From: Escherichia phage EPFV3-03/2025 | Length of the DNA stretch: 64,000 nt | Strand: one strand, 5' to 3' | Sequence record: PV435126.1 | Shown here: positions 8,400 through 41,631 of the stretch, piece by piece | Layout of the letters: each line of letters starts with the position of its first letter | How positions within the stretch are numbered: position 1 is the stretch's first letter | Program-made: the position numbers and the translations under genes | The notes under the pieces: model-generated | Told to the model about the DNA's origin: nothing | The model's database searches: none | Seen by the model: the letters and a program-made list of their open reading frames with translations, nothing else

Positions 8400-8717
8400 T
8401 CAATCCCAAAAGTCAATCTTTACTTTACCTTTTCCCTTACCTTTCTTTCCACCGCATTTAGCCAACTGGCGTGCTGCAACATCCACCATACGGTCAGTTG
8501 CCTCGTAAGCATCGCTACCTTTAGCTTTGGCGATAACTTCTTTCCCAGAATTGTCAAAAATAAAAGCCATAACTTCCTGGTGATCATTTTCAACTTTTAC
8601 ACTCACACGTGCATAGTTGGCAGATGGGTGCAAACGCTCCAGTTTGGACATTTTGTGGGAAATGAAAGACACCATACCTTCAGTGATCTCTACGTTGCCA
8701 GTGATTTCAATCTGCAT
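8400..8717 (-). CDS. ribosome hibernation promoting factor / RaiA-like protein
   Basis: MQIEITGNVEITEGM...KLERL...VKVE...RQLAK resembles the HPF/YfiA family N-terminus MQLNITGxNVEITxA..KLE and C-terminal RQL(N/T)K, as recalled from the E. coli proteins; TTGACA-N17-TATCAT promoter upstream. Confidence 0.7.
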   Translation of the reverse strand: MQIEITGNVEITEGMVSFISHKMSKLERLHPSANYARVSVKVENDHQEVMAFIFDNSGKEVIAKAKGSDAYEATDRMVDVAARQLAKCGGKKGKGKGKVKIDFWD

Positions 8718-26154: not shown

Positions 26155-27138
26155 TTAACCTTTCATGAAGTGGTTATTAAGCAGCTGTCTGTGCTGAACC
26201 CACCCACAAAAGTTGGCAGACCAGAATTTACCATCACGGTCTTGATGGGTTACACCTTCCTGCCAAACACAGCTGTCCTGTGTGATTTCACATGAAGACA
26301 GGTAGTAGTTTAAACGTTCCATTGCGTTATCGTGATCCATAGGTGTTGCCTGATGCTCGTAAGGGCTTGCATGAATACGATCCCCACCGATCAATTTTTT
26401 AGCCACACTGTCTGCCTTTTCAAACGTGCTGTCAATATTGCGATAAGATACTTGTGCACAGCAACTAGCACTAATAGACAGAGCTTCTCCAGTGTCGAGA
26501 ATACATAGCTTCCCTTCTGTGTCACGTACAGCATAGTTAAACTCACCGTCCAAATAAACGTGCTCCACATATGGGGTGTGCCATTGACCCGGTTTAAGGA
26601 TTTCAGGAGTGCTATTTACAAGAGCCTCCCACATACAATTAGCCAACATCTGAATCGTAGGATCCGCATCGTGCCAGCAACGGAGGTGGAAAAAATTATT
26701 CCACTCGGTGCTTGTTACAACTGTTTTCATGCGTTGAAACGGCTCTACTAGGCGGTTACATACTTGCTTATGGTAACCAGCAAGGGCGAACTTCTCTGCA
26801 TGCCAAGCGGCGTTTTTTGCAGCTTCTTTCCAAAACTCTTCAGGGGTTAGCTCCATGTCAGTGTATTCTACACGGATCTTTTGATCGTGTTCCCCTCCAT
26901 CTTCCATTCCTCGCTTATTTACACCGAAGCGAACTGGCATTGCCGGATTCTCCACAATCTGCTGCAGCATCTTGCTGACAGGCACTGCACGAGAAGACAT
27001 AGCGTTTCGGCTGAACATTCGATGTGTCATAAGCTCTGAGTGAATAATTCGAGGATATTCTAGCTCAAAAGTGGTGATACGCTTACCTTTCTCTGAAATG
27101 CTGTCGGCAATAATCTTTGCAGTGCACAGTTTTAGCAT
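26155..27138 (-). CDS. thyX: flavin-dependent thymidylate synthase
   Basis: 327 aa; ThyX signature region RIIHSELMTHRMFSRNAMSSRA. Confidence 0.8.
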   Translation of the reverse strand: MLKLCTAKIIADSISEKGKRITTFELEYPRIIHSELMTHRMFSRNAMSSRAVPVSKMLQQIVENPAMPVRFGVNKRGMEDGGEHDQKIRVEYTDMELTPEEFWKEAAKNAAWHAEKFALAGYHKQVCNRLVEPFQRMKTVVTSTEWNNFFHLRCWHDADPTIQMLANCMWEALVNSTPEILKPGQWHTPYVEHVYLDGEFNYAVRDTEGKLCILDTGEALSISASCCAQVSYRNIDSTFEKADSVAKKLIGGDRIHASPYEHQATPMDHDNAMERLNYYLSSCEITQDSCVWQEGVTHQDRDGKFWSANFCGWVQHRQLLNNHFMKG

Positions 27139-34973: not shown

Positions 34974-35180
34974 TCATTCAAAGAAATGGGTGCGAGGGCA
35001 GGAACCTGCCTCACCTTGTTTCACAAGCTCATATAGCTCACCTTGGCTTGTCTCATAAAGGCAAATACGTTTACCATTGTCCCGATATACATCCACAAGA
35101 TACGCTGTTTCACCTGCAAACACGACACCACAGACAAGGCATGCTGCCATGAACAAAATTGCCAACAGAAAATCTTTCAT
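34974..35180 (-). CDS. small secreted or lipoprotein-like protein
   Basis: 68 aa; N-terminal signal-like LLAILFMAACLVCGVVFA; immediately downstream of the endolysin gene. Confidence 0.45.
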   Translation of the reverse strand: MKDFLLAILFMAACLVCGVVFAGETAYLVDVYRDNGKRICLYETSQGELYELVKQGEAGSCPRTHFFE

Positions 35181-35243
35181 GGTTAAACCCTCCTGAACAT
35201 TCTATGAGGCAACAATACCACGTCCGTGTGGTTATGTCAATGA

Positions 35244-35714
35244 TTAATCCAGGACAACGCCGCCTGACTTTTTGAACACCTCGATCAACTTTTCAATCTT
35301 CTGTTCGTGCTGACCGTACCCTGCACCTGGAAGGCTTGCCCATCGGGATCGGCAAAGATGGATGGCCTGGTGAATACGACCTTCATCAATATCATCGAGC
35401 GCCTTACACTCACGGATCAGTTGCAACGCAATCTTGTCCTGACTGGTAGGGCCAAAATCTGGTAATCCTAACTGCTCCATATAGTGTTTAGCAAACTTCT
35501 CCAAAATCTGGTAACGCCCAGCAGCAGAGGAGGTAAGTTTAGCATTTAACTTAACGTAAACACCTGGATGCTTACTGTAATCGCTAAACAGCTTGCCACC
35601 GACTATGACATCATAGCCCCGATCCTTGGTAGGTTGTCTACCGTTATCTGTACCTTCTGAATATGCGATCATATCCAAGAAAGCTTTTCGTTGAACATTT
35701 TTATCAAGTTTCAT
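35244..35714 (-). CDS. endolysin (lambda R-like lytic transglycosylase)
   Basis: 156 aa; QRKAFLDMIAYSEGTDNGRQ...YDVIVGG...AGRYQ...WASLPGAGYGQ closely parallels lambda R. Confidence 0.9.
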   Translation of the reverse strand: MKLDKNVQRKAFLDMIAYSEGTDNGRQPTKDRGYDVIVGGKLFSDYSKHPGVYVKLNAKLTSSAAGRYQILEKFAKHYMEQLGLPDFGPTSQDKIALQLIRECKALDDIDEGRIHQAIHLCRSRWASLPGAGYGQHEQKIEKLIEVFKKSGGVVLD

Positions 35715-35865: not shown

Positions 35866-37149
35866 CTATTCCAGAACCTCCCAAGTGTCTGGATTAACAT
35901 TTCGGACGCAGATACCGACAGGGAATTGGTAGTTGTTGTCTTCTGTCCTTGCTTGATATTTAAAGGTGACAAACTTGCCGATCATTTCCTGCATCCTGCC
36001 ATAGCTACGCTCCTCGTGCGTGCCTTTCATCTTCATTTTAACAACGATGCCTTCCTTGTCAACGCAGATAAGAACACCCTCATCATTCTTATCTTTCTCA
36101 ACGTCAATAACTTTCACCTCTGCGTCGTTGAACTTTTTCCATTTCAATGCTTCAGATGTTCGCTGACCGTATTCGTATTTACCACAGAAGTTACGCATGA
36201 TAGTACCTTCATACCCTTCGGACATGAATACACCAACAGATTCTTCGCAATGATCAACTGTGTACGCAATCTCTGCGTCAACAACCCTGATATGGTCAAG
36301 CATCAGAGTGGTAATGGTATCTTCTGCATCCATAAGATCCTTGCAGCGTCCAGACTCTGTTTCTGGATCCCACCACACCTTGTCACTAGGGATATCAAAA
36401 ATGTGATACTCTAAGTCATAGCTACAGTACCCTCCGTAACGCAAATCATCACGAACAGGCTCAACATCAACAGGAATATCTACCTTATTGAAGTTTTTGT
36501 ATGTTGATAAGCCTGCCTTAATTGCGGCATGACGGCGTTTTTTATCTGCCTCGTAGTCTTTATCGATCTCGGCCTGAATCTCTTCCTGTGTGCGCCACCG
36601 TTTAGCAAGAGACACTATTTTCTGCAGAGGCAGACCATGAATATAGATCTCTCCGTCGAGCTGTTTAATCCCGGTGGTGAAGTGGAAAGAACGAAGTTGC
36701 TCCAGAAGCTTTCCTTGAATAGGGTAGGACTTATTACCACGGGAAATAAATTTAGGCTCCCCATTTTGGAAAACAACAAGTAGACGAAGGCCATCTAACT
36801 TACGCAAGATCCAGCAAGGTAATTTAAGTGCCTTTCCACGCTTCAGGTAGTCATGCACCAGCATGGGTAAAAGGTCAACGCCCTGCTCGCAATCTTCCAT
36901 ATTTTCAACATACCCCAGACGGACTTGTTTTTCCCACTTACTGATCGCTTCCAGCTCAGCCTGTTGCTCAGCTGTAGTTTCATTGGCACGACCCACGTTC
37001 TTAGGTGTGCAGATCGTCTCTTTGTATTGCAGTTTACCATCAAGCTTGCCAAACTCTACGATAACCTTATCACCATCCGTGAATACTTTCCACTGTTGGT
37101 AGCTGTCATCTTTGTTCAGTGCGTACAGTGTTGTTTTGATCTGATGCAT
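35866..37149 (-). CDS. ATP-dependent DNA ligase
   Basis: 427 aa; adenylation motif KLDGLR, EGTIMR and KWKKF-type downstream motifs. Confidence 0.75.
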   Translation of the reverse strand: MHQIKTTLYALNKDDSYQQWKVFTDGDKVIVEFGKLDGKLQYKETICTPKNVGRANETTAEQQAELEAISKWEKQVRLGYVENMEDCEQGVDLLPMLVHDYLKRGKALKLPCWILRKLDGLRLLVVFQNGEPKFISRGNKSYPIQGKLLEQLRSFHFTTGIKQLDGEIYIHGLPLQKIVSLAKRWRTQEEIQAEIDKDYEADKKRRHAAIKAGLSTYKNFNKVDIPVDVEPVRDDLRYGGYCSYDLEYHIFDIPSDKVWWDPETESGRCKDLMDAEDTITTLMLDHIRVVDAEIAYTVDHCEESVGVFMSEGYEGTIMRNFCGKYEYGQRTSEALKWKKFNDAEVKVIDVEKDKNDEGVLICVDKEGIVVKMKMKGTHEERSYGRMQEMIGKFVTFKYQARTEDNNYQFPVGICVRNVNPDTWEVLE

Positions 37150-37418
37150 TACTCAGCCTCTTCCTTAAAAATTTTAAACATCTCTTCTTTGCTCATTACC
37201 AACCAGTCTCCCATAAAGTCAACTAACCAATCCCCTTGGTACAAGACCAGGTTACCAAACGGCTCGACAAGCTCACACATGCGAAGAATATCTCTGGTTC
37301 GAACAGGTGACGATGTAAACACACCTGTATCAATCCACCGTTGCAGATCAGATACTGATGAAGAGCTTCCGTCAAACTGGTGTGCTTCTACAGGTTTAGC
37401 AAGATTAAATAACGGCAT
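37149..37418 (-). CDS. hypothetical protein
   Basis: 89-aa ORF. Confidence 0.45.
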   Translation of the reverse strand: MPLFNLAKPVEAHQFDGSSSSVSDLQRWIDTGVFTSSPVRTRDILRMCELVEPFGNLVLYQGDWLVDFMGDWLVMSKEEMFKIFKEEAE

Positions 37419-37713
37419 TGCAGTCCTCCTTCTCTAATAGGTCTTTTATCGGGTAAACAAGCAGGTGCGGATCGTAATAACTTATAGTCTTATTCTGCCA
37501 CACTATGAACTTAATTACAACTAAATTTACCACATCTTTATCCCCATGTAGTCCAACACACAAATTTGTCCATATTTTGTGGTTGAATACTTTGCTGTCG
37601 ATGTAGATCTTAGTGTCAAACTTATCCTCTATCCTACCTATAAGTTTAACCAATTCTTTCATCTGATCACCAAACACAGCATCGTTTTCAAGATCTCTAG
37701 AGTGCTTGTACAT
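37405..37713 (-). CDS. hypothetical protein
   Basis: 102-aa ORF. Confidence 0.45.
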   Translation of the reverse strand: MYKHSRDLENDAVFGDQMKELVKLIGRIEDKFDTKIYIDSKVFNHKIWTNLCVGLHGDKDVVNLVVIKFIVWQNKTISYYDPHLLVYPIKDLLEKEDCNAVI

Positions 37714-37777
37714 AACTTTCTACCTCACTTGCATACTTTCCGAAACAAGTAAAGCCGGGATCGCCCCGGCTATGTTA

Positions 37778-38491
37778 TTAAATATATTCTGTTACATCCT
37801 TGAAGCTCGAAGGCTTCATAATCTTACCTTTACTGTCGAGGAATATGATAACTTTATTTCCGTTGTAGAATTCTTCTTTAGCAACAAAACCTTCATAGCG
37901 ACCATCAAAGCGTCGCTCAAGATCTTTAATCTCCAACTCGATGAGTTGTTCAGCAGGCATATCTGCACTGGCACCGTGTGAATACCGCAGATGGTTGACG
38001 CGTGCAAACTTGCTGTCATTAGATTTTAGAACCTTCCGCATCATCCCGCACACATCACCGCGAAGCTGGAACAGCAAAGCTGTTGACAACTCTGCTAAGC
38101 GGTAAGCAGACGCTCTTTGCTTAGAGGTATTTTTCGCAGCGATCAGTGTATCATAAAATTCACCGATCTTAAACTTAAGACCTCGCGGATTATCAAACAG
38201 GTTTGACCACTTTTCATGGTTATCGTTAACAAGATAAGCGGCATAACTTGTGACAACGTGAAGATCGCAGGCCTCTTTTAGGAGATGATCCCCACCATCA
38301 CCTTTCTCCAACTCTTCCAAAACTTCATTGAACTCTTCCTCAATGAAACTCAGCTGAAGTTCGAATGGTGTGTATGATTTTTTCACTTTAGCTGCTACAC
38401 GGTTCCAATTTTCCACCCAGTTGGCAGACCAAAGGTAGTTTTCAGGCTGAGACAGTTTTTCCAGGTTGTCGATCAGTTTAGTATTCAGCAT
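37778..38491 (-). CDS. MazG-like nucleotide pyrophosphohydrolase domain protein
   Basis: 237 aa; EEEFNEVLEELEKGD...HLLKEACDLHVV resembles the MazG helical core; C-terminal domain unknown. Confidence 0.5.
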   Translation of the reverse strand: MLNTKLIDNLEKLSQPENYLWSANWVENWNRVAAKVKKSYTPFELQLSFIEEEFNEVLEELEKGDGGDHLLKEACDLHVVTSYAAYLVNDNHEKWSNLFDNPRGLKFKIGEFYDTLIAAKNTSKQRASAYRLAELSTALLFQLRGDVCGMMRKVLKSNDSKFARVNHLRYSHGASADMPAEQLIELEIKDLERRFDGRYEGFVAKEEFYNGNKVIIFLDSKGKIMKPSSFKDVTEYI

Positions 38492-38505
38492 TAAAAGGCC
38501 TCCGC

Positions 38506-39267
38506 TTACAGTTCCATAAAGTTTTCTACGATGTCAATAAATGTTTTATCAGAGAAAGCGTCAACCGCCCCGTTAAACCAAACTGGGATGCCGCGATCCT
38601 CATACTGGTAAATGTCACTACGTGAAATGCCATTCTCCCCTAAATGCTGTGAGTCGTATTTGTTAACGATCAGTAGTTTAGTCCCCTTATTACAGGCAGG
38701 GAATAGCTCCCAGTTAAAATTGATAACTGTGTTGGAGCACCCTACAAGGATAACCATATCATTGCTCGTCAGAGAAGTCAACAGGTCATACATGTCTACA
38801 TACTTTGGAGCTACTTCTCCGAAGAACACTACATTAGGCTTGACCCAAGTATACTCGCTTGCATCTACCTCAGAGTATCCAATGTCTTTAATTACGTCAT
38901 TCCCTTCATCATCCTCATAAACTATTTCTGGCAAATACCCGTGGACATGCAAAATATCTTCATGTTTTACACCAGCACGCTCCAGCAAATCATCTACATT
39001 GGTGGTCAGGTTGATCACACGACCAGACCAGCGGGAATACCACTCAGCGATCCGGAGATGTGCAAGGTTAGGCTCAACACTCCCCAAAGCTACACGCCGT
39101 GCATTGTAAAAGTCATGTACCTTATAGTAGTTCTTGGCAAAGGTGTGGATGTTACACACCTCATCGATGCTGAAATTCTCCCACATTGCAGTGCCACCAG
39201 ATCGGAAAGTTGGGATACCAGATTCAGCGCTCAAACCAGCACCGGAGATAATGATCAGTCGTCGCAT
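38506..39267 (-). CDS. Sir2-family (sirtuin-like) NAD-dependent protein
   Basis: 253 aa; GAGLSAESGIPTFRS, NLTTNVDDLLERAG..HVHG and KPNVVFFGE match the three Sir2 signature regions; no CxxC zinc module seen. Confidence 0.75.
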   Translation of the reverse strand: MRRLIIISGAGLSAESGIPTFRSGGTAMWENFSIDEVCNIHTFAKNYYKVHDFYNARRVALGSVEPNLAHLRIAEWYSRWSGRVINLTTNVDDLLERAGVKHEDILHVHGYLPEIVYEDDEGNDVIKDIGYSEVDASEYTWVKPNVVFFGEVAPKYVDMYDLLTSLTSNDMVILVGCSNTVINFNWELFPACNKGTKLLIVNKYDSQHLGENGISRSDIYQYEDRGIPVWFNGAVDAFSDKTFIDIVENFMEL

Positions 39268-39275
39268 AAGTGTCC

Positions 39276-39626
39276 TCAGTAGATGTTTTGTTTAATCTCT
39301 ATTCCAAACTTTTTAAACGAGTCAGCAGCAAGCATGAATTTACGAGCCGCTGATGGGTTAGAAGTATGCACGAAAATCTTCACGTTGTCAACTACAGGAG
39401 GCTTACCAAATACAAATTTTTCTTCCAGCATAGATAGGCAATCGTACCCTTCAAATACCTCTCCAAGGTCGTTGTCCATGTGCCACTCAGAAACGCGCCT
39501 GTAGAGCTTTCCCTTATCGTTAATAAAATCAATAAACTCAGAGGAATTCTTTAGCCAAAGAGCATCTGGGAGCCCATAATTTGACGGATCTCTCAAGTCA
39601 TCCAGCCACACAATCAACTTCTTCAT
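39276..39626 (-). CDS. hypothetical protein, possible receiver-like RNA-repair accessory domain
   Basis: 116 aa; N-terminal KLIVWLDDLRDP strand-loop; translationally coupled to the RNA ligase gene. Confidence 0.4.
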   Translation of the reverse strand: MKKLIVWLDDLRDPSNYGLPDALWLKNSSEFIDFINDKGKLYRRVSEWHMDNDLGEVFEGYDCLSMLEEKFVFGKPPVVDNVKIFVHTSNPSAARKFMLAADSFKKFGIEIKQNIY

Positions 39627-40558
39627 TGCATATAGTCCTCGTTGTGGAAATAGCAGTCAAGTATCTCACGGCGTTCCTGCTCCAGGAGGCAATTCCACAC
39701 ATCTTCTGTGTAGTTTCTACGAATGAAGTTTACCATGCCGTAAAACTCTTCGTCAACACGTTTAAAGATATCATCATCCCAAATCTTCCAAGCTCTACCC
39801 CTCATTACGACCTTCCGTGCCAGATAGTAGGGAGACTTGATCTTTAGTTGCAGGTCATAAGGGTAGTAAGACTTACGGATCATATACCCTTCGCCCCTTG
39901 TTTCTGCAGCCAACTCTTTTGCATAGCTGAACGGAATTTCACGCACAGTGTGAGGACGTTTTGCACCAAGGTATTTGGCAATACCGTCTAAAGCTGCTTC
40001 TGGTAGCATTATTCCAGAATCATTGTATCGGCAACCGATCAAATAGGCACCATGATCTTCCTGAACAATATGCGGGTCTGAAGGGTGACAAATTTCAAAC
40101 ATGAATGTCATGTTTTCATGGCCCATAACCTTCTTGATAAGATCTAAATTACCACATTGCTCCTGGATTGTTTCCTTTGCGAGGTTACAATATGGAGAAT
40201 CAAGAGACCCTGTTGTTGAGAACAACAGTTCACCTTTGTGAGATGATACCACACCAAGGAATCCGTTCTTTTTCTCTACCGCCGTCACAAGTTTATTGTC
40301 AGGCAGGTTGGTGGAATTTTCTCCCAAGTTAAATACTTTTGTGAAGGGCCATGCCACAACATTTCCTTCATTACCGACAACAATTCCTCGGCACTCTAGT
40401 AAACGCGGAGACAAATGCCATAGATTGTTGTAAAATACTTTTCTGGCATATTTATAGATCTTTAACCCAAGATCTGGATAATACCGACTGGTTACAAGAC
40501 CTTTATCCACTAAATCATCTGCATTAAAATACTTCATCATACATTCCTCGTTTGTCAT
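39623..40558 (-). CDS. RNA ligase-like nucleotidyltransferase
   Basis: 311 aa; candidate motif I KKNG, motif IV EGYMIRK, motif V LKIK; separate from the DNA ligase; next to the Pnkp-like genes. Confidence 0.6.
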   Translation of the reverse strand: MTNEECMMKYFNADDLVDKGLVTSRYYPDLGLKIYKYARKVFYNNLWHLSPRLLECRGIVVGNEGNVVAWPFTKVFNLGENSTNLPDNKLVTAVEKKNGFLGVVSSHKGELLFSTTGSLDSPYCNLAKETIQEQCGNLDLIKKVMGHENMTFMFEICHPSDPHIVQEDHGAYLIGCRYNDSGIMLPEAALDGIAKYLGAKRPHTVREIPFSYAKELAAETRGEGYMIRKSYYPYDLQLKIKSPYYLARKVVMRGRAWKIWDDDIFKRVDEEFYGMVNFIRRNYTEDVWNCLLEQERREILDCYFHNEDYMQ

Positions 40559-40601
40559 TTTGTCACTCTATCTTGCCACACAAATAAACTAGTGTCAACA
40601 C

Positions 40602-40658: not shown

Positions 40659-41069
40659 ATGTCTAAAATGCTGTATATCGTGCGTGGTCTACCAGGTTCT
40701 GGCAAATCAACACTGGCAAATGCACTATCTTTAGAGGGGCTGTACCCACATTTTGAGAACGACATGTTCTGGTACGACGACGATGGAAATTACAACTGGG
40801 ATGCAAGTAAAGTAACACTTGCAGCAAAATGGTGCAAAGATAACGTAGAAGATATGATGCGTATGGGATACGACCGTGTCGTGGTAAGTAATACGTTTAC
40901 AAAAGAAAAACATGTGCAAGAATATGTTGACATGGCAATCAGTCATGGGTATAGTTATACTGTGATCGTGGTTGAAAACCGCCACGGTAATAAGAGCATT
41001 CATGATGTTCCAGATAGGGTTGTGGACCGTATGGAGCGTGAGCTTAAAAACTGCATTAAACTAAAATGA
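40659..41069 (+). CDS. polynucleotide 5'-kinase (Pnkp kinase-domain-like)
   Basis: 136 aa; P-loop GLPGSGKST and VSNT resemble the T4 Pnkp kinase domain. Confidence 0.7.
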   Translation: MSKMLYIVRGLPGSGKSTLANALSLEGLYPHFENDMFWYDDDGNYNWDASKVTLAAKWCKDNVEDMMRMGYDRVVVSNTFTKEKHVQEYVDMAISHGYSYTVIVVENRHGNKSIHDVPDRVVDRMERELKNCIKLK

Positions 41070-41076
41070 GGGATGT

Positions 41077-41631
41077 ATGAAATATTTTGTAACAAGCGAT
41101 ACACACTTTCTCCACCAGCGAGTCATGGAGTTTGATTCATGTCAAAAACACAGATCTCAGTATGATCACAATCTTGACAGTATGAACGAAGGAATCATTG
41201 CAGAGTGGAACTCTGTTGTATCACCAGAAGACACTGTGTTTCACTTGGGCGATATTGCATGCACTAAGGATAAGAATATCAACAACTTATTTCCAGATAT
41301 TCTAAATATGTTGAACGGACATATTATTCTTGTTCGTGGTAACCATGACACAAGGACGACTGTCAGAATTATGAAAGAGTTCGGTCATGAGGTTGTAGAT
41401 TATTACGAGCTTCGCCACAACAAGAATTTGATCTGTATGAGCCATTACCAGTTTGCAAAGTGGAACAGAAAGCCTCACGGATCAGTCCAACTGTTCGGTC
41501 ATGCTCACGGAACCACACAGCAGTTGTTTGGCAGGCAGTTTGATGTCGGTTGGGATGTGTGGGGGAGACTCTTACCATTAGAAGAGGCATACCGTATTGC
41601 AATGAGTCTTGCTATTGACAGCGGGGAGTAA
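41077..41631 (+). CDS. calcineurin-like metallophosphoesterase (candidate 2',3' end-healing phosphatase)
   Basis: 184 aa; SDTHF, GDI, GNHD, GHAH motifs. Confidence 0.8.
   Translation: MKYFVTSDTHFLHQRVMEFDSCQKHRSQYDHNLDSMNEGIIAEWNSVVSPEDTVFHLGDIACTKDKNINNLFPDILNMLNGHIILVRGNHDTRTTVRIMKEFGHEVVDYYELRHNKNLICMSHYQFAKWNRKPHGSVQLFGHAHGTTQQLFGRQFDVGWDVWGRLLPLEEAYRIAMSLAIDSGE

Follow-up and report, generated by a model that had tools for sequence, protein, structure and literature searches.

The stretch of DNA analysed here, called the window, comprises 64,000 nucleotides (nt) of Escherichia phage EPFV3-03/2025 (sequence record PV435126.1). The gene of interest is an ATG-initiated open reading frame (ORF) of 237 amino acids (aa) on the minus strand, which an earlier note made from the letters alone had read as a MazG-like pyrophosphohydrolase. 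The ORF listing of the window gives it exactly the coordinates of that note, 37778..38491, for 237 codons and the stop codon. The gene and its flanking signals are:

37778..38491, minus strand: complete ORF for an all-alpha nucleoside triphosphate (NTP) pyrophosphohydrolase of the PHROG 671 family, the same as FV3_00078 / YP_007006249.1.
38499..38503, minus strand: Shine-Dalgarno sequence GGAGG, 7 nt 5' of the ATG and inside the 14-nt gap past the stop codon of the preceding Sir2 gene.
37753..37771, minus strand: terminator-like GC-rich hairpin followed by UUUACUUGUUU, directly 3' of the ORF stop codon.

The hairpin has a minimum free energy of -14.3 kcal/mol (z = -2.1) and, as a terminator-like element, ends the gene string rnl1-cREC-Sir2-ORF. 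The ORF is clearly a real conserved gene, since it has its own Shine-Dalgarno sequence and terminator hairpin, is identical to a protein of phage FV3, matches PHROG 671 and has homologues that align from end to end. Its product has the same sequence as FV3_00078 of Vequintavirus FV3 and is 100% identical in the other listed Vequintavirus records. The surrounding region (36500-40600) shares 99% identity with Escherichia phage FV3 and 94-98% identity with over 100 further rV5-like phages (Vequintavirus, Vequintavirinae). FV3_00078 is named 'nucleotide pyrophosphohydrolase' in RefSeq and 'hypothetical protein' in the original GenBank record and in most sister records. Four GenBank records (MN850578, MN850595, MN850646 and MN850630) and UniProt A0A7H0XDZ2 label the MazG-like ORF 'putative Sir2-like protein', a name that appears to have slipped over from the adjoining gene.

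At the level of the superfamily, the protein is confirmed as a divergent all-alpha NTP pyrophosphohydrolase of the MazG/HisE type. PHROG 671 ('nucleotide pyrophosphohydrolase') matches residues 6-232 with E=5e-22. An exhaustive search of 1.84 billion representatives with a hidden Markov model (HMM; E<=1e-3, clusters at 50% identity) gave 167 clusters, nearly all of them 200-270 aa long and matching end to end. Three proteins with long multi-stretch HMM matches (P0099, P0126 and P0139) were considered as fusions and rejected as repetitive, unrelated proteins. The family alignment used throughout holds 74 sequences with 22-95% identity to the window protein; all 74 match PHROG 671, and some also match PHROGs named 'MazG-like pyrophosphatase'. 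The window protein scores 13.7 bits against PRA-PH (HisE, PF01503), below the cutoff of 21.3 (E=0.084, residues 31-81 only), and 51/74 members match this model at E<=0.01, which, judged by profile matches, shows homology at the superfamily level and not HisE orthology. The MazG model (PF03819) matches 18/74 members at E<=0.01, all weakly (best 2.8e-5), and does not match the window protein at E<=1. Sequence searches of the PDB with the window protein alone or with a profile of close homologs gave no match; the 74-sequence profile reached weakly to HisE and MazG structures (HisE 1yvw, E=0.0095) and aligned its metal-motif segment to HisE 1yvw and E. coli MazG. The search against NCBIfam returned noise only. 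PADLOC gave no match for the ORF, and a defence-system origin was therefore dropped. The assignment to the MazG superfamily is already public, both in the PHROG and RefSeq annotation and in Iyer et al., 2022 (PMC9503650).

The AlphaFold2 model built from the family alignment has a predicted local distance difference test score of 94.5 and a predicted template modelling (TM) score of 0.90. Its helices span residues 4-13, 20-37, 43-63, 68-87, 92-97, 109-119, 122-142, 147-159, 165-172 and 180-194 and are followed by a beta-hairpin (203-209/212-218), a loop and a short terminal helix. The predicted protein has the helical-bundle fold common to solved members of the superfamily, with a single EExxE/ExxD core in its 237 aa. 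The parts of the protein map to the DNA as follows:

38366..38491, minus strand: residues 1-42, helices 4-13 and 20-37, 5' of the metal-binding helix (AlphaFold2 and alignment).
38264..38341, minus strand: residues 51-76, EExxE...ExxD metal-binding motif (74-sequence alignment).
38252..38257, minus strand: V79-V80, at the His-Phe positions of canonical dimeric dUTPases (E..D..HF; alignment).
38006..38053, minus strand: residues 147-162, helix with the S-N-D-S-K motif (alignment and AlphaFold2).
37781..38005, minus strand: residues 163-237, family-specific C-terminal module (AlphaFold2 and alignment).
37811..37825, minus strand: residues 223-227, K-I-M-K-P loop (alignment; weak motif match to PDB 3nl9).

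The metal site is formed by E52/E53/E56 and E73/D76 in the window protein, and it is almost unchanged across the family: E52 is kept in 73/74 members, E53 and D76 in all 74 and E56 in 72/74, while an acidic residue occurs at position 72 or 73 in every member. Q46, just upstream of the motif, is kept in 71/74. The two N-terminal helices hold the conserved residues V26, W29, N30 (73/74) and A33 and are a candidate site for recognition of base and sugar, by analogy with motif I of dimeric dUTPases. N158 and K161 in the S-N-D-S-K helix are invariant. The proposal of the earlier note that the N-terminal region resembles the MazG helical core is thus borne out at the superfamily level, as a MazG/HisE-type helical fold is predicted and its metal-binding motif is intact.

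The same note had left roughly 120 aa at the C-terminus unassigned, as an unknown domain; an independent domain of this size is not supported, and here the model gives another boundary. Residues ~88-162 form helices that belong to the catalytic fold, and 132-149 residues align structurally to dUTPases, so that the match reaches far past residue 117. Only residues 163-237 are added to the superfamily core; this module of ~75 aa occurs only together with this core. It consists of helix 165-172, helix 180-194 (with E187 and E192), the triplet G197-R198-Y199, the hairpin 203-209/212-218 (with F217) and the terminal helix. Its conserved residues are E187, E192, G197-R198-Y199, F217, D219 and the stretch G-K223-I-M-K226-P227. 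K223 and K226 are present in 74/74 members and P227 in 73/74, so the two lysines are as conserved as the catalytic acids. We infer from this conservation that the module may be a lid that closes over the substrate and supplies phosphate-binding lysines and an arginine, in which case it would be functionally similar to motif V of dimeric dUTPases. PDB entry 3NL9 (putative NTP pyrophosphohydrolase Exig_1061, a structural-genomics target) gave a weak match to the C-terminal motif, which was lost with a longer profile.

Only ~77 residues align with the MazG/HisE group (E. coli MazG 3CRA, HisE 1YVW, iMazG 2Q5Z and S-2L MazZ 7ODY). The window protein exceeds these by two helices at its N-terminus, by ~75 further helical residues and by the C-terminal alpha/beta module. 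E. coli MazG consists of tandem MazG domains, whereas the window protein has one core, and it falls below the Pfam gathering thresholds for the MazG/HisE models. The top structural matches of the AlphaFold2 model are d(C/U)TPases, with staphylococcal phage Duts as the best match, and the model is structurally nearer to dimeric dUTPases than to E. coli MazG. The overall fold of the dimeric dUTPases (phiDI Dut 5MYD, C. jejuni 1W2Y, L. major 2YAY and T4 gp56), including their extra helices, is matched here. In the model, the architecture is therefore closest to an enlarged helical form of the dimeric d(C/U)TPase branch, not to a minimal MazG joined to an unrelated domain. Most matches of a search of BFVD were unnamed phage proteins belonging to this family (TM 0.55-0.76); one match of low rank was labelled 'NTP pyrophosphohydrolase, DR2231-like'. 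DR2231 of Deinococcus radiodurans is a MazG-like protein with exclusive dUTPase activity and offers a precedent (Goncalves 2011 and Mota 2016, as cited in PMC10014863). BFVD also holds A0A481Z0N6, a 471-aa Mimivirus-like protein named 'thymidine kinase [Mimivirus LCMiAC01]', to which the model aligns as a whole with E=4.9e-5 and TMq 0.57. The match hints at a related NTP pyrophosphohydrolase domain fused to a thymidine kinase, which would fit a role in pyrimidine deoxynucleotide metabolism.

The sequence motifs of the dimeric dUTPases are not all present. Canonical dimeric dUTPases and T4 gp56 carry the motifs E..D..HF and K.N..N..RQ..GY, which read 'EIVDIWHF' and 'GKNVLNIFRQNNGY' in 1w2y and 'ELVDIFHF' and 'LKNKHNFERQDNGY' in T4 gp56. 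The His-Phe couple sandwiches the deoxyribose and excludes ribose, and its His was proposed to set the specificity for uracil (PMC5608427). In the window protein this couple is replaced by Val-Val; V79 is found in 73/74 members and V80 in 67/74, and in the family alignment His occurs at these positions in 0/74 members. The corresponding helix of phiDI Dut carries Lys154...Asn158...Arg161, in which Asn158 serves as the anchor for deoxyribose and contacts to the phosphates are made by the basic residues (PMC5608427). N158 and K161 of the window protein are spaced like Asn158 and Arg161 of this K...N..R motif, whereas the Lys at -4 is Val154 here. The 'RQxxGY' tail gives way to the 75-aa module of helix, helix, beta-hairpin and GKxMKP; RQ..GY is absent from the window protein, and a G-R-Y motif occurs 37 residues later. 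Pfam dUTPase_2 (PF08761) matches neither the window protein nor any of the 74 members, and none of the 74 matches a dUTPase PHROG. An hhalign comparison of the family with T4 gp56 was insignificant (2% probability); nevertheless it pairs Q46 and the EEE..E helix with 'EQKDCIDDEFRE' of gp56. Given the Val-Val replacement, Val154 and the lack of dUTPase_2 and dUTPase PHROG matches, the protein is, as far as its motifs tell, not a canonical dUTPase.

The gene content of the phage and the neighbours of distant homologs both point to the deoxynucleotide pool. One gene of this pathway lies in the window:

26158..27138, minus strand: ThyX, the flavin adenine dinucleotide (FAD)-dependent thymidylate synthase, 10.6 kb from the ORF.

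ThyX is the likely consumer of dUMP. FV3 encodes ThyX together with aerobic and anaerobic ribonucleotide reductases (RNRs) and glutaredoxin, and its annotation contains no dUTPase, dCMP deaminase or deoxynucleoside monophosphate (dNMP) kinase. In tblastn searches of the FV3 genome, the one genome that this search covered, neither E. coli Dut (best E 0.9) nor T4 gp56 (best E 0.17) found a match; the E. coli Dut probe detects 2439 phage records. In Phapecoctavirus ukendt the homolog comes after a DNA ligase and before RdgC, and ThyX and RNR are located 5-10 kb downstream of it. The same order of DNA ligase, MazG-like gene and RdgC is found in Pseudomonas phage PsgM04F and on metagenomic contig L011. 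Contig L023 carries the MazG-like gene, two small ORFs, ThyX, glutaredoxin and the small and large RNR subunits. Contig L016 has a dNMP kinase, two ORFs, the MazG-like gene, four small ORFs and ThyX, and contig L012 a dNMP kinase, one ORF and the MazG-like gene, with phosphoribosyl pyrophosphate (PRPP) synthetase and NAMPT further on. On contig L018 the deoxynucleotidase NT5C abuts the MazG-like gene, and NT5C is also present on L011. As a separate observation, the PRPP synthetase and the NAMPT-like protein of L012 (8278-10728), a few kb downstream of the distant homolog, form a salvage pair for nicotinamide adenine dinucleotide (NAD+).

The distant homologs beside ThyX, RNR, dNMP kinase and NT5C, and the ThyX and reductases of FV3 with no detectable Dut, argue for a role in the deoxynucleoside triphosphate (dNTP) pool. 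On balance, and with moderate confidence, we regard the protein as an active Mg2+-dependent (d)NTP pyrophosphohydrolase that acts on this pool and most plausibly converts dUTP and/or dCTP to dNMP and pyrophosphate (PPi). The substrate, the role of the lid and a dimeric state are all deduced from these comparisons. By transfer from the superfamily, Mg2+ held by E52/E53/E56 and E73/D76 would activate a water molecule, and the alpha-beta phosphoanhydride would be cut to give NMP and pyrophosphate. N158 would anchor the sugar, the leaving phosphates would be bound by K161, R198 and K223/K226 of the C-terminal hairpin-loop lid, and the base would be read by N30, W29 and Q46 on the N-terminal helices. 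Conversion of dUTP and/or dCTP, possibly also of other dNTPs, to dNMP would keep uracil out of phage DNA and provide dUMP for ThyX. There are precedents: staphylococcal phage dimeric Duts that lack the His (Ala73) also hydrolyse dCTP (PMC5608427), and a purified cyanophage MazG prefers dGTP and dCTP (PMC6850273).

Several points weigh against this assignment. Firstly, the His-Phe couple and the -4 Lys are replaced, and the searches with dUTPase_2, the dUTPase PHROGs and gp56 gave the negative outcomes described above. Secondly, the Vequintavirus gene is strung together with Sir2, cREC and RNA ligase, and ThyX is 10.6 kb off. Thirdly, the presumed placement of K223/K226 near the active site rests on their conservation, and the neighbourhood evidence comes largely from short metagenomic contigs. 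Lastly, biochemical data for family members were not found in the literature.

A broader enzyme is possible, if rather unlikely: a house-cleaning or pool-reshaping NTP pyrophosphatase that is not a pyrimidine d(C/U)TPase, with non-canonical or damaged dNTPs (dITP, 8-oxo-dGTP), purine dNTPs (as for cyanophage MazG) or a nucleotide signal of host defence as candidate substrates. By sequence the family is nearer to the MazG/HisE models than to the dUTPase models, and the uracil-specific His is missing. Specificities in the superfamily vary widely, from the dGTP and dCTP of cyanophage MazG to M. tuberculosis MazG, for which PMC10014863 describes hydrolysis of every canonical and non-canonical NTP. 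In the cultured phages, the block of ATP-dependent DNA ligase and recombination genes is the neighbour found most constantly, which fits a general function in replication fidelity. However, the repeated ThyX, NT5C and dNMP kinase neighbours speak for pyrimidine deoxynucleotides, and the best structural matches are d(C/U)TPases. As for a signalling nucleotide, PADLOC found no matches and the contexts show no sign of one.

A second alternative arises from the genes next to the ORF, which are:

39623-40558, minus strand: Rnl1-like RNA ligase, upstream in the same-strand string.
39276-39626, minus strand: cREC_REC, upstream in the same-strand string.
38506-39267, minus strand: Sir2, upstream in the same-strand string.
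40659-41069, plus strand: AAA_33 polynucleotide-kinase-like ATPase, divergently transcribed.
41077-41631, plus strand: calcineurin-like phosphoesterase, divergently transcribed.

The ORF is the last of four same-strand genes with gaps of -4, 8 and 14 nt (rnl1/cREC/Sir2/ORF), and all five RNA-repair-like genes (ligase, cREC, Sir2, kinase and phosphoesterase) lie within 3.2 kb of it. Iyer, Burroughs and Aravind (2022; section 3.7.3) described a neighbourhood in phage V5 and Proteus phage Mydo with 'a MazG superfamily pyrophosphatase' among its components. The system they proposed is built around a sirtuin, uses NAD+ and repairs RNA ends, and the MazG protein is given no reaction in it (PMC9503650). 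Their type 2 sirtuin-centred neighbourhood, with V5 as prototype, comprises T4-like RNA ligase, cREC, nucleotide kinase, Sir2, the MazG-superfamily pyrophosphatase and calcineurin-like phosphoesterase (PMC9503650); the window has these genes too and belongs to the same phage lineage. The NAD+-dependent removal of a 2'-phosphate ascribed to this neighbourhood is itself a proposal only (Iyer et al., 2022). Their paper names the superfamily only, and does not cover the dimeric-dUTPase-like architecture, the C-terminal module or the distant dNTP contexts (PMC9503650).

The protein could accordingly be part of this sirtuin-centred module and hydrolyse a pyrophosphate by-product or intermediate, such as an ADP-ribose derivative or an adenylylated or NAD-derived nucleotide, but we consider this unlikely. 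The tight string closed by a terminator, and the naming of a MazG pyrophosphatase in the conserved V5/Mydo neighbourhood, are in its favour. The Mydo homolog is still within ~3 kb of Sir2, with a DNA ligase, an HNH gene and three small ORFs in between, and in Phapecoctavirus-like genomes cREC, phosphoesterase, kinase and RNA ligase lie in part 2-4 kb upstream. The Val-Val sugar pocket could also take ribose. On the other side, Sir2 is 27 kb from the homolog in ukendt (central third of the genome read) and absent from the flanks retrieved (5-7 kb, as far as the contig reaches) at seven other loci, namely PsgM04F, L011, L012, L016, L018, L022 and L023. The linkage to Sir2 is not conserved across the family and decays quickly outside Vequintavirus. 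Moreover, the contexts in Vequintavirinae and Stephanstirmvirinae are syntenic, so the gene order may come from descent and not from function; the published proposal assigns the MazG protein no reaction, and the independent contexts favour dNTP metabolism. A more specific form of this idea, which we hold to be improbable, is an unrecognised subtype of all-alpha NTP pyrophosphohydrolase, with its Val-Val pocket and double-lysine lid, that acts on an ADP-ribose- or NAD-derived product of the Sir2/cREC/RNA-ligase machinery in Vequintaviruses. If true, an ADP-ribose- or NAD-derived substrate would mean a new enzymatic step in NAD+-dependent RNA repair or anti-defence of phages.

The suggestion of the earlier note that the protein lowers host (p)ppGpp and, together with a phage HPF/RaiA homolog, acts on the stringent response and translation did not hold up and is very improbable: the protein does belong to the MazG superfamily, the phage does encode a RaiA/HPF homolog (window 8403-8717, minus strand, 105 aa, 100% identical to FV3_00136) and older literature proposed such a role for phage MazG (PMC2297514), but the HPF gene is separated from the ORF by 29 kb, in another block among small early genes and with nothing that links the two, a purified cyanophage MazG showed neither binding nor hydrolysis of (p)ppGpp (PMC6850273; a weak refutation, by analogy), the structure resembles dimeric dUTPases more closely than E. 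coli MazG and has no tandem-domain architecture, stringent-response genes occur in none of the family contexts examined, and the distant homologs adjoin deoxynucleotide genes.

What is new here, beyond the superfamily, is the dimeric-dUTPase-like architecture, the corrected domain boundary, the structurally unmatched C-terminal hairpin and double-lysine module, the Val-Val in place of His-Phe, the dNTP-metabolism contexts and the lack of another dUTPase in FV3. If the assignment to the deoxynucleotide pool is true, large coliphages of the rV5-like, phAPEC8-like and related kinds would possess a non-canonical d(C/U)TPase of their own, which would supply ThyX and guard their DNA from uracil; several of these phages serve in phage therapy and biocontrol. 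This would fill an apparent gap in the nucleotide-metabolism gene set of these phages, and the Val-Val pocket with its lysine lid would represent a third sequence and structure solution to the dUTPase problem. The analysis also corrects two annotation habits, the reading of phage 'MazG' as a tool against ppGpp and the stringent response, and the naming of this ORF as 'Sir2-like'. The practical value is modest, since the superfamily was already assigned and the substrate is predicted.

Some minor observations concern the surrounding DNA and the records that match it. Between the terminator and the ATP-dependent DNA ligase, the window has two small conserved ORFs on the minus strand (37149-37713), one of 102 aa (phrog_7684) and one of 89 aa (phrog_14585); small ORFs likewise separate the homolog from the DNA ligase in Mydo, ukendt and PsgM04F. 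In FV3, an inserted HNH endonuclease gene splits the gene of NrdD, the large subunit of the anaerobic ribonucleotide reductase, into two coding sequences (FV3_00106/00107/00108; FV3 85636-88554, corresponding to about 18.0-21.0 kb of the window). FV3 also carries an HNH homing endonuclease, FV3_00083, between endolysin and a small membrane protein (71350-72033), and this gene is missing from the window at ~35180-35244. Its absence leads to a 687-nt offset between window and FV3 coordinates and identifies the window as a close relative of FV3, not FV3 itself. Lastly, ~20 GenBank records of the MG0656xx set, named 'Campylobacter phage' and with C. jejuni given as host, match this E. coli Vequintavirus region at 94-100% identity, and in two other records of the set there is a gene with 100% identity to E. 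coli dut. These matches suggest that the hosts of the set were mis-attributed or that the records contain contaminating coliphage or E. coli DNA.

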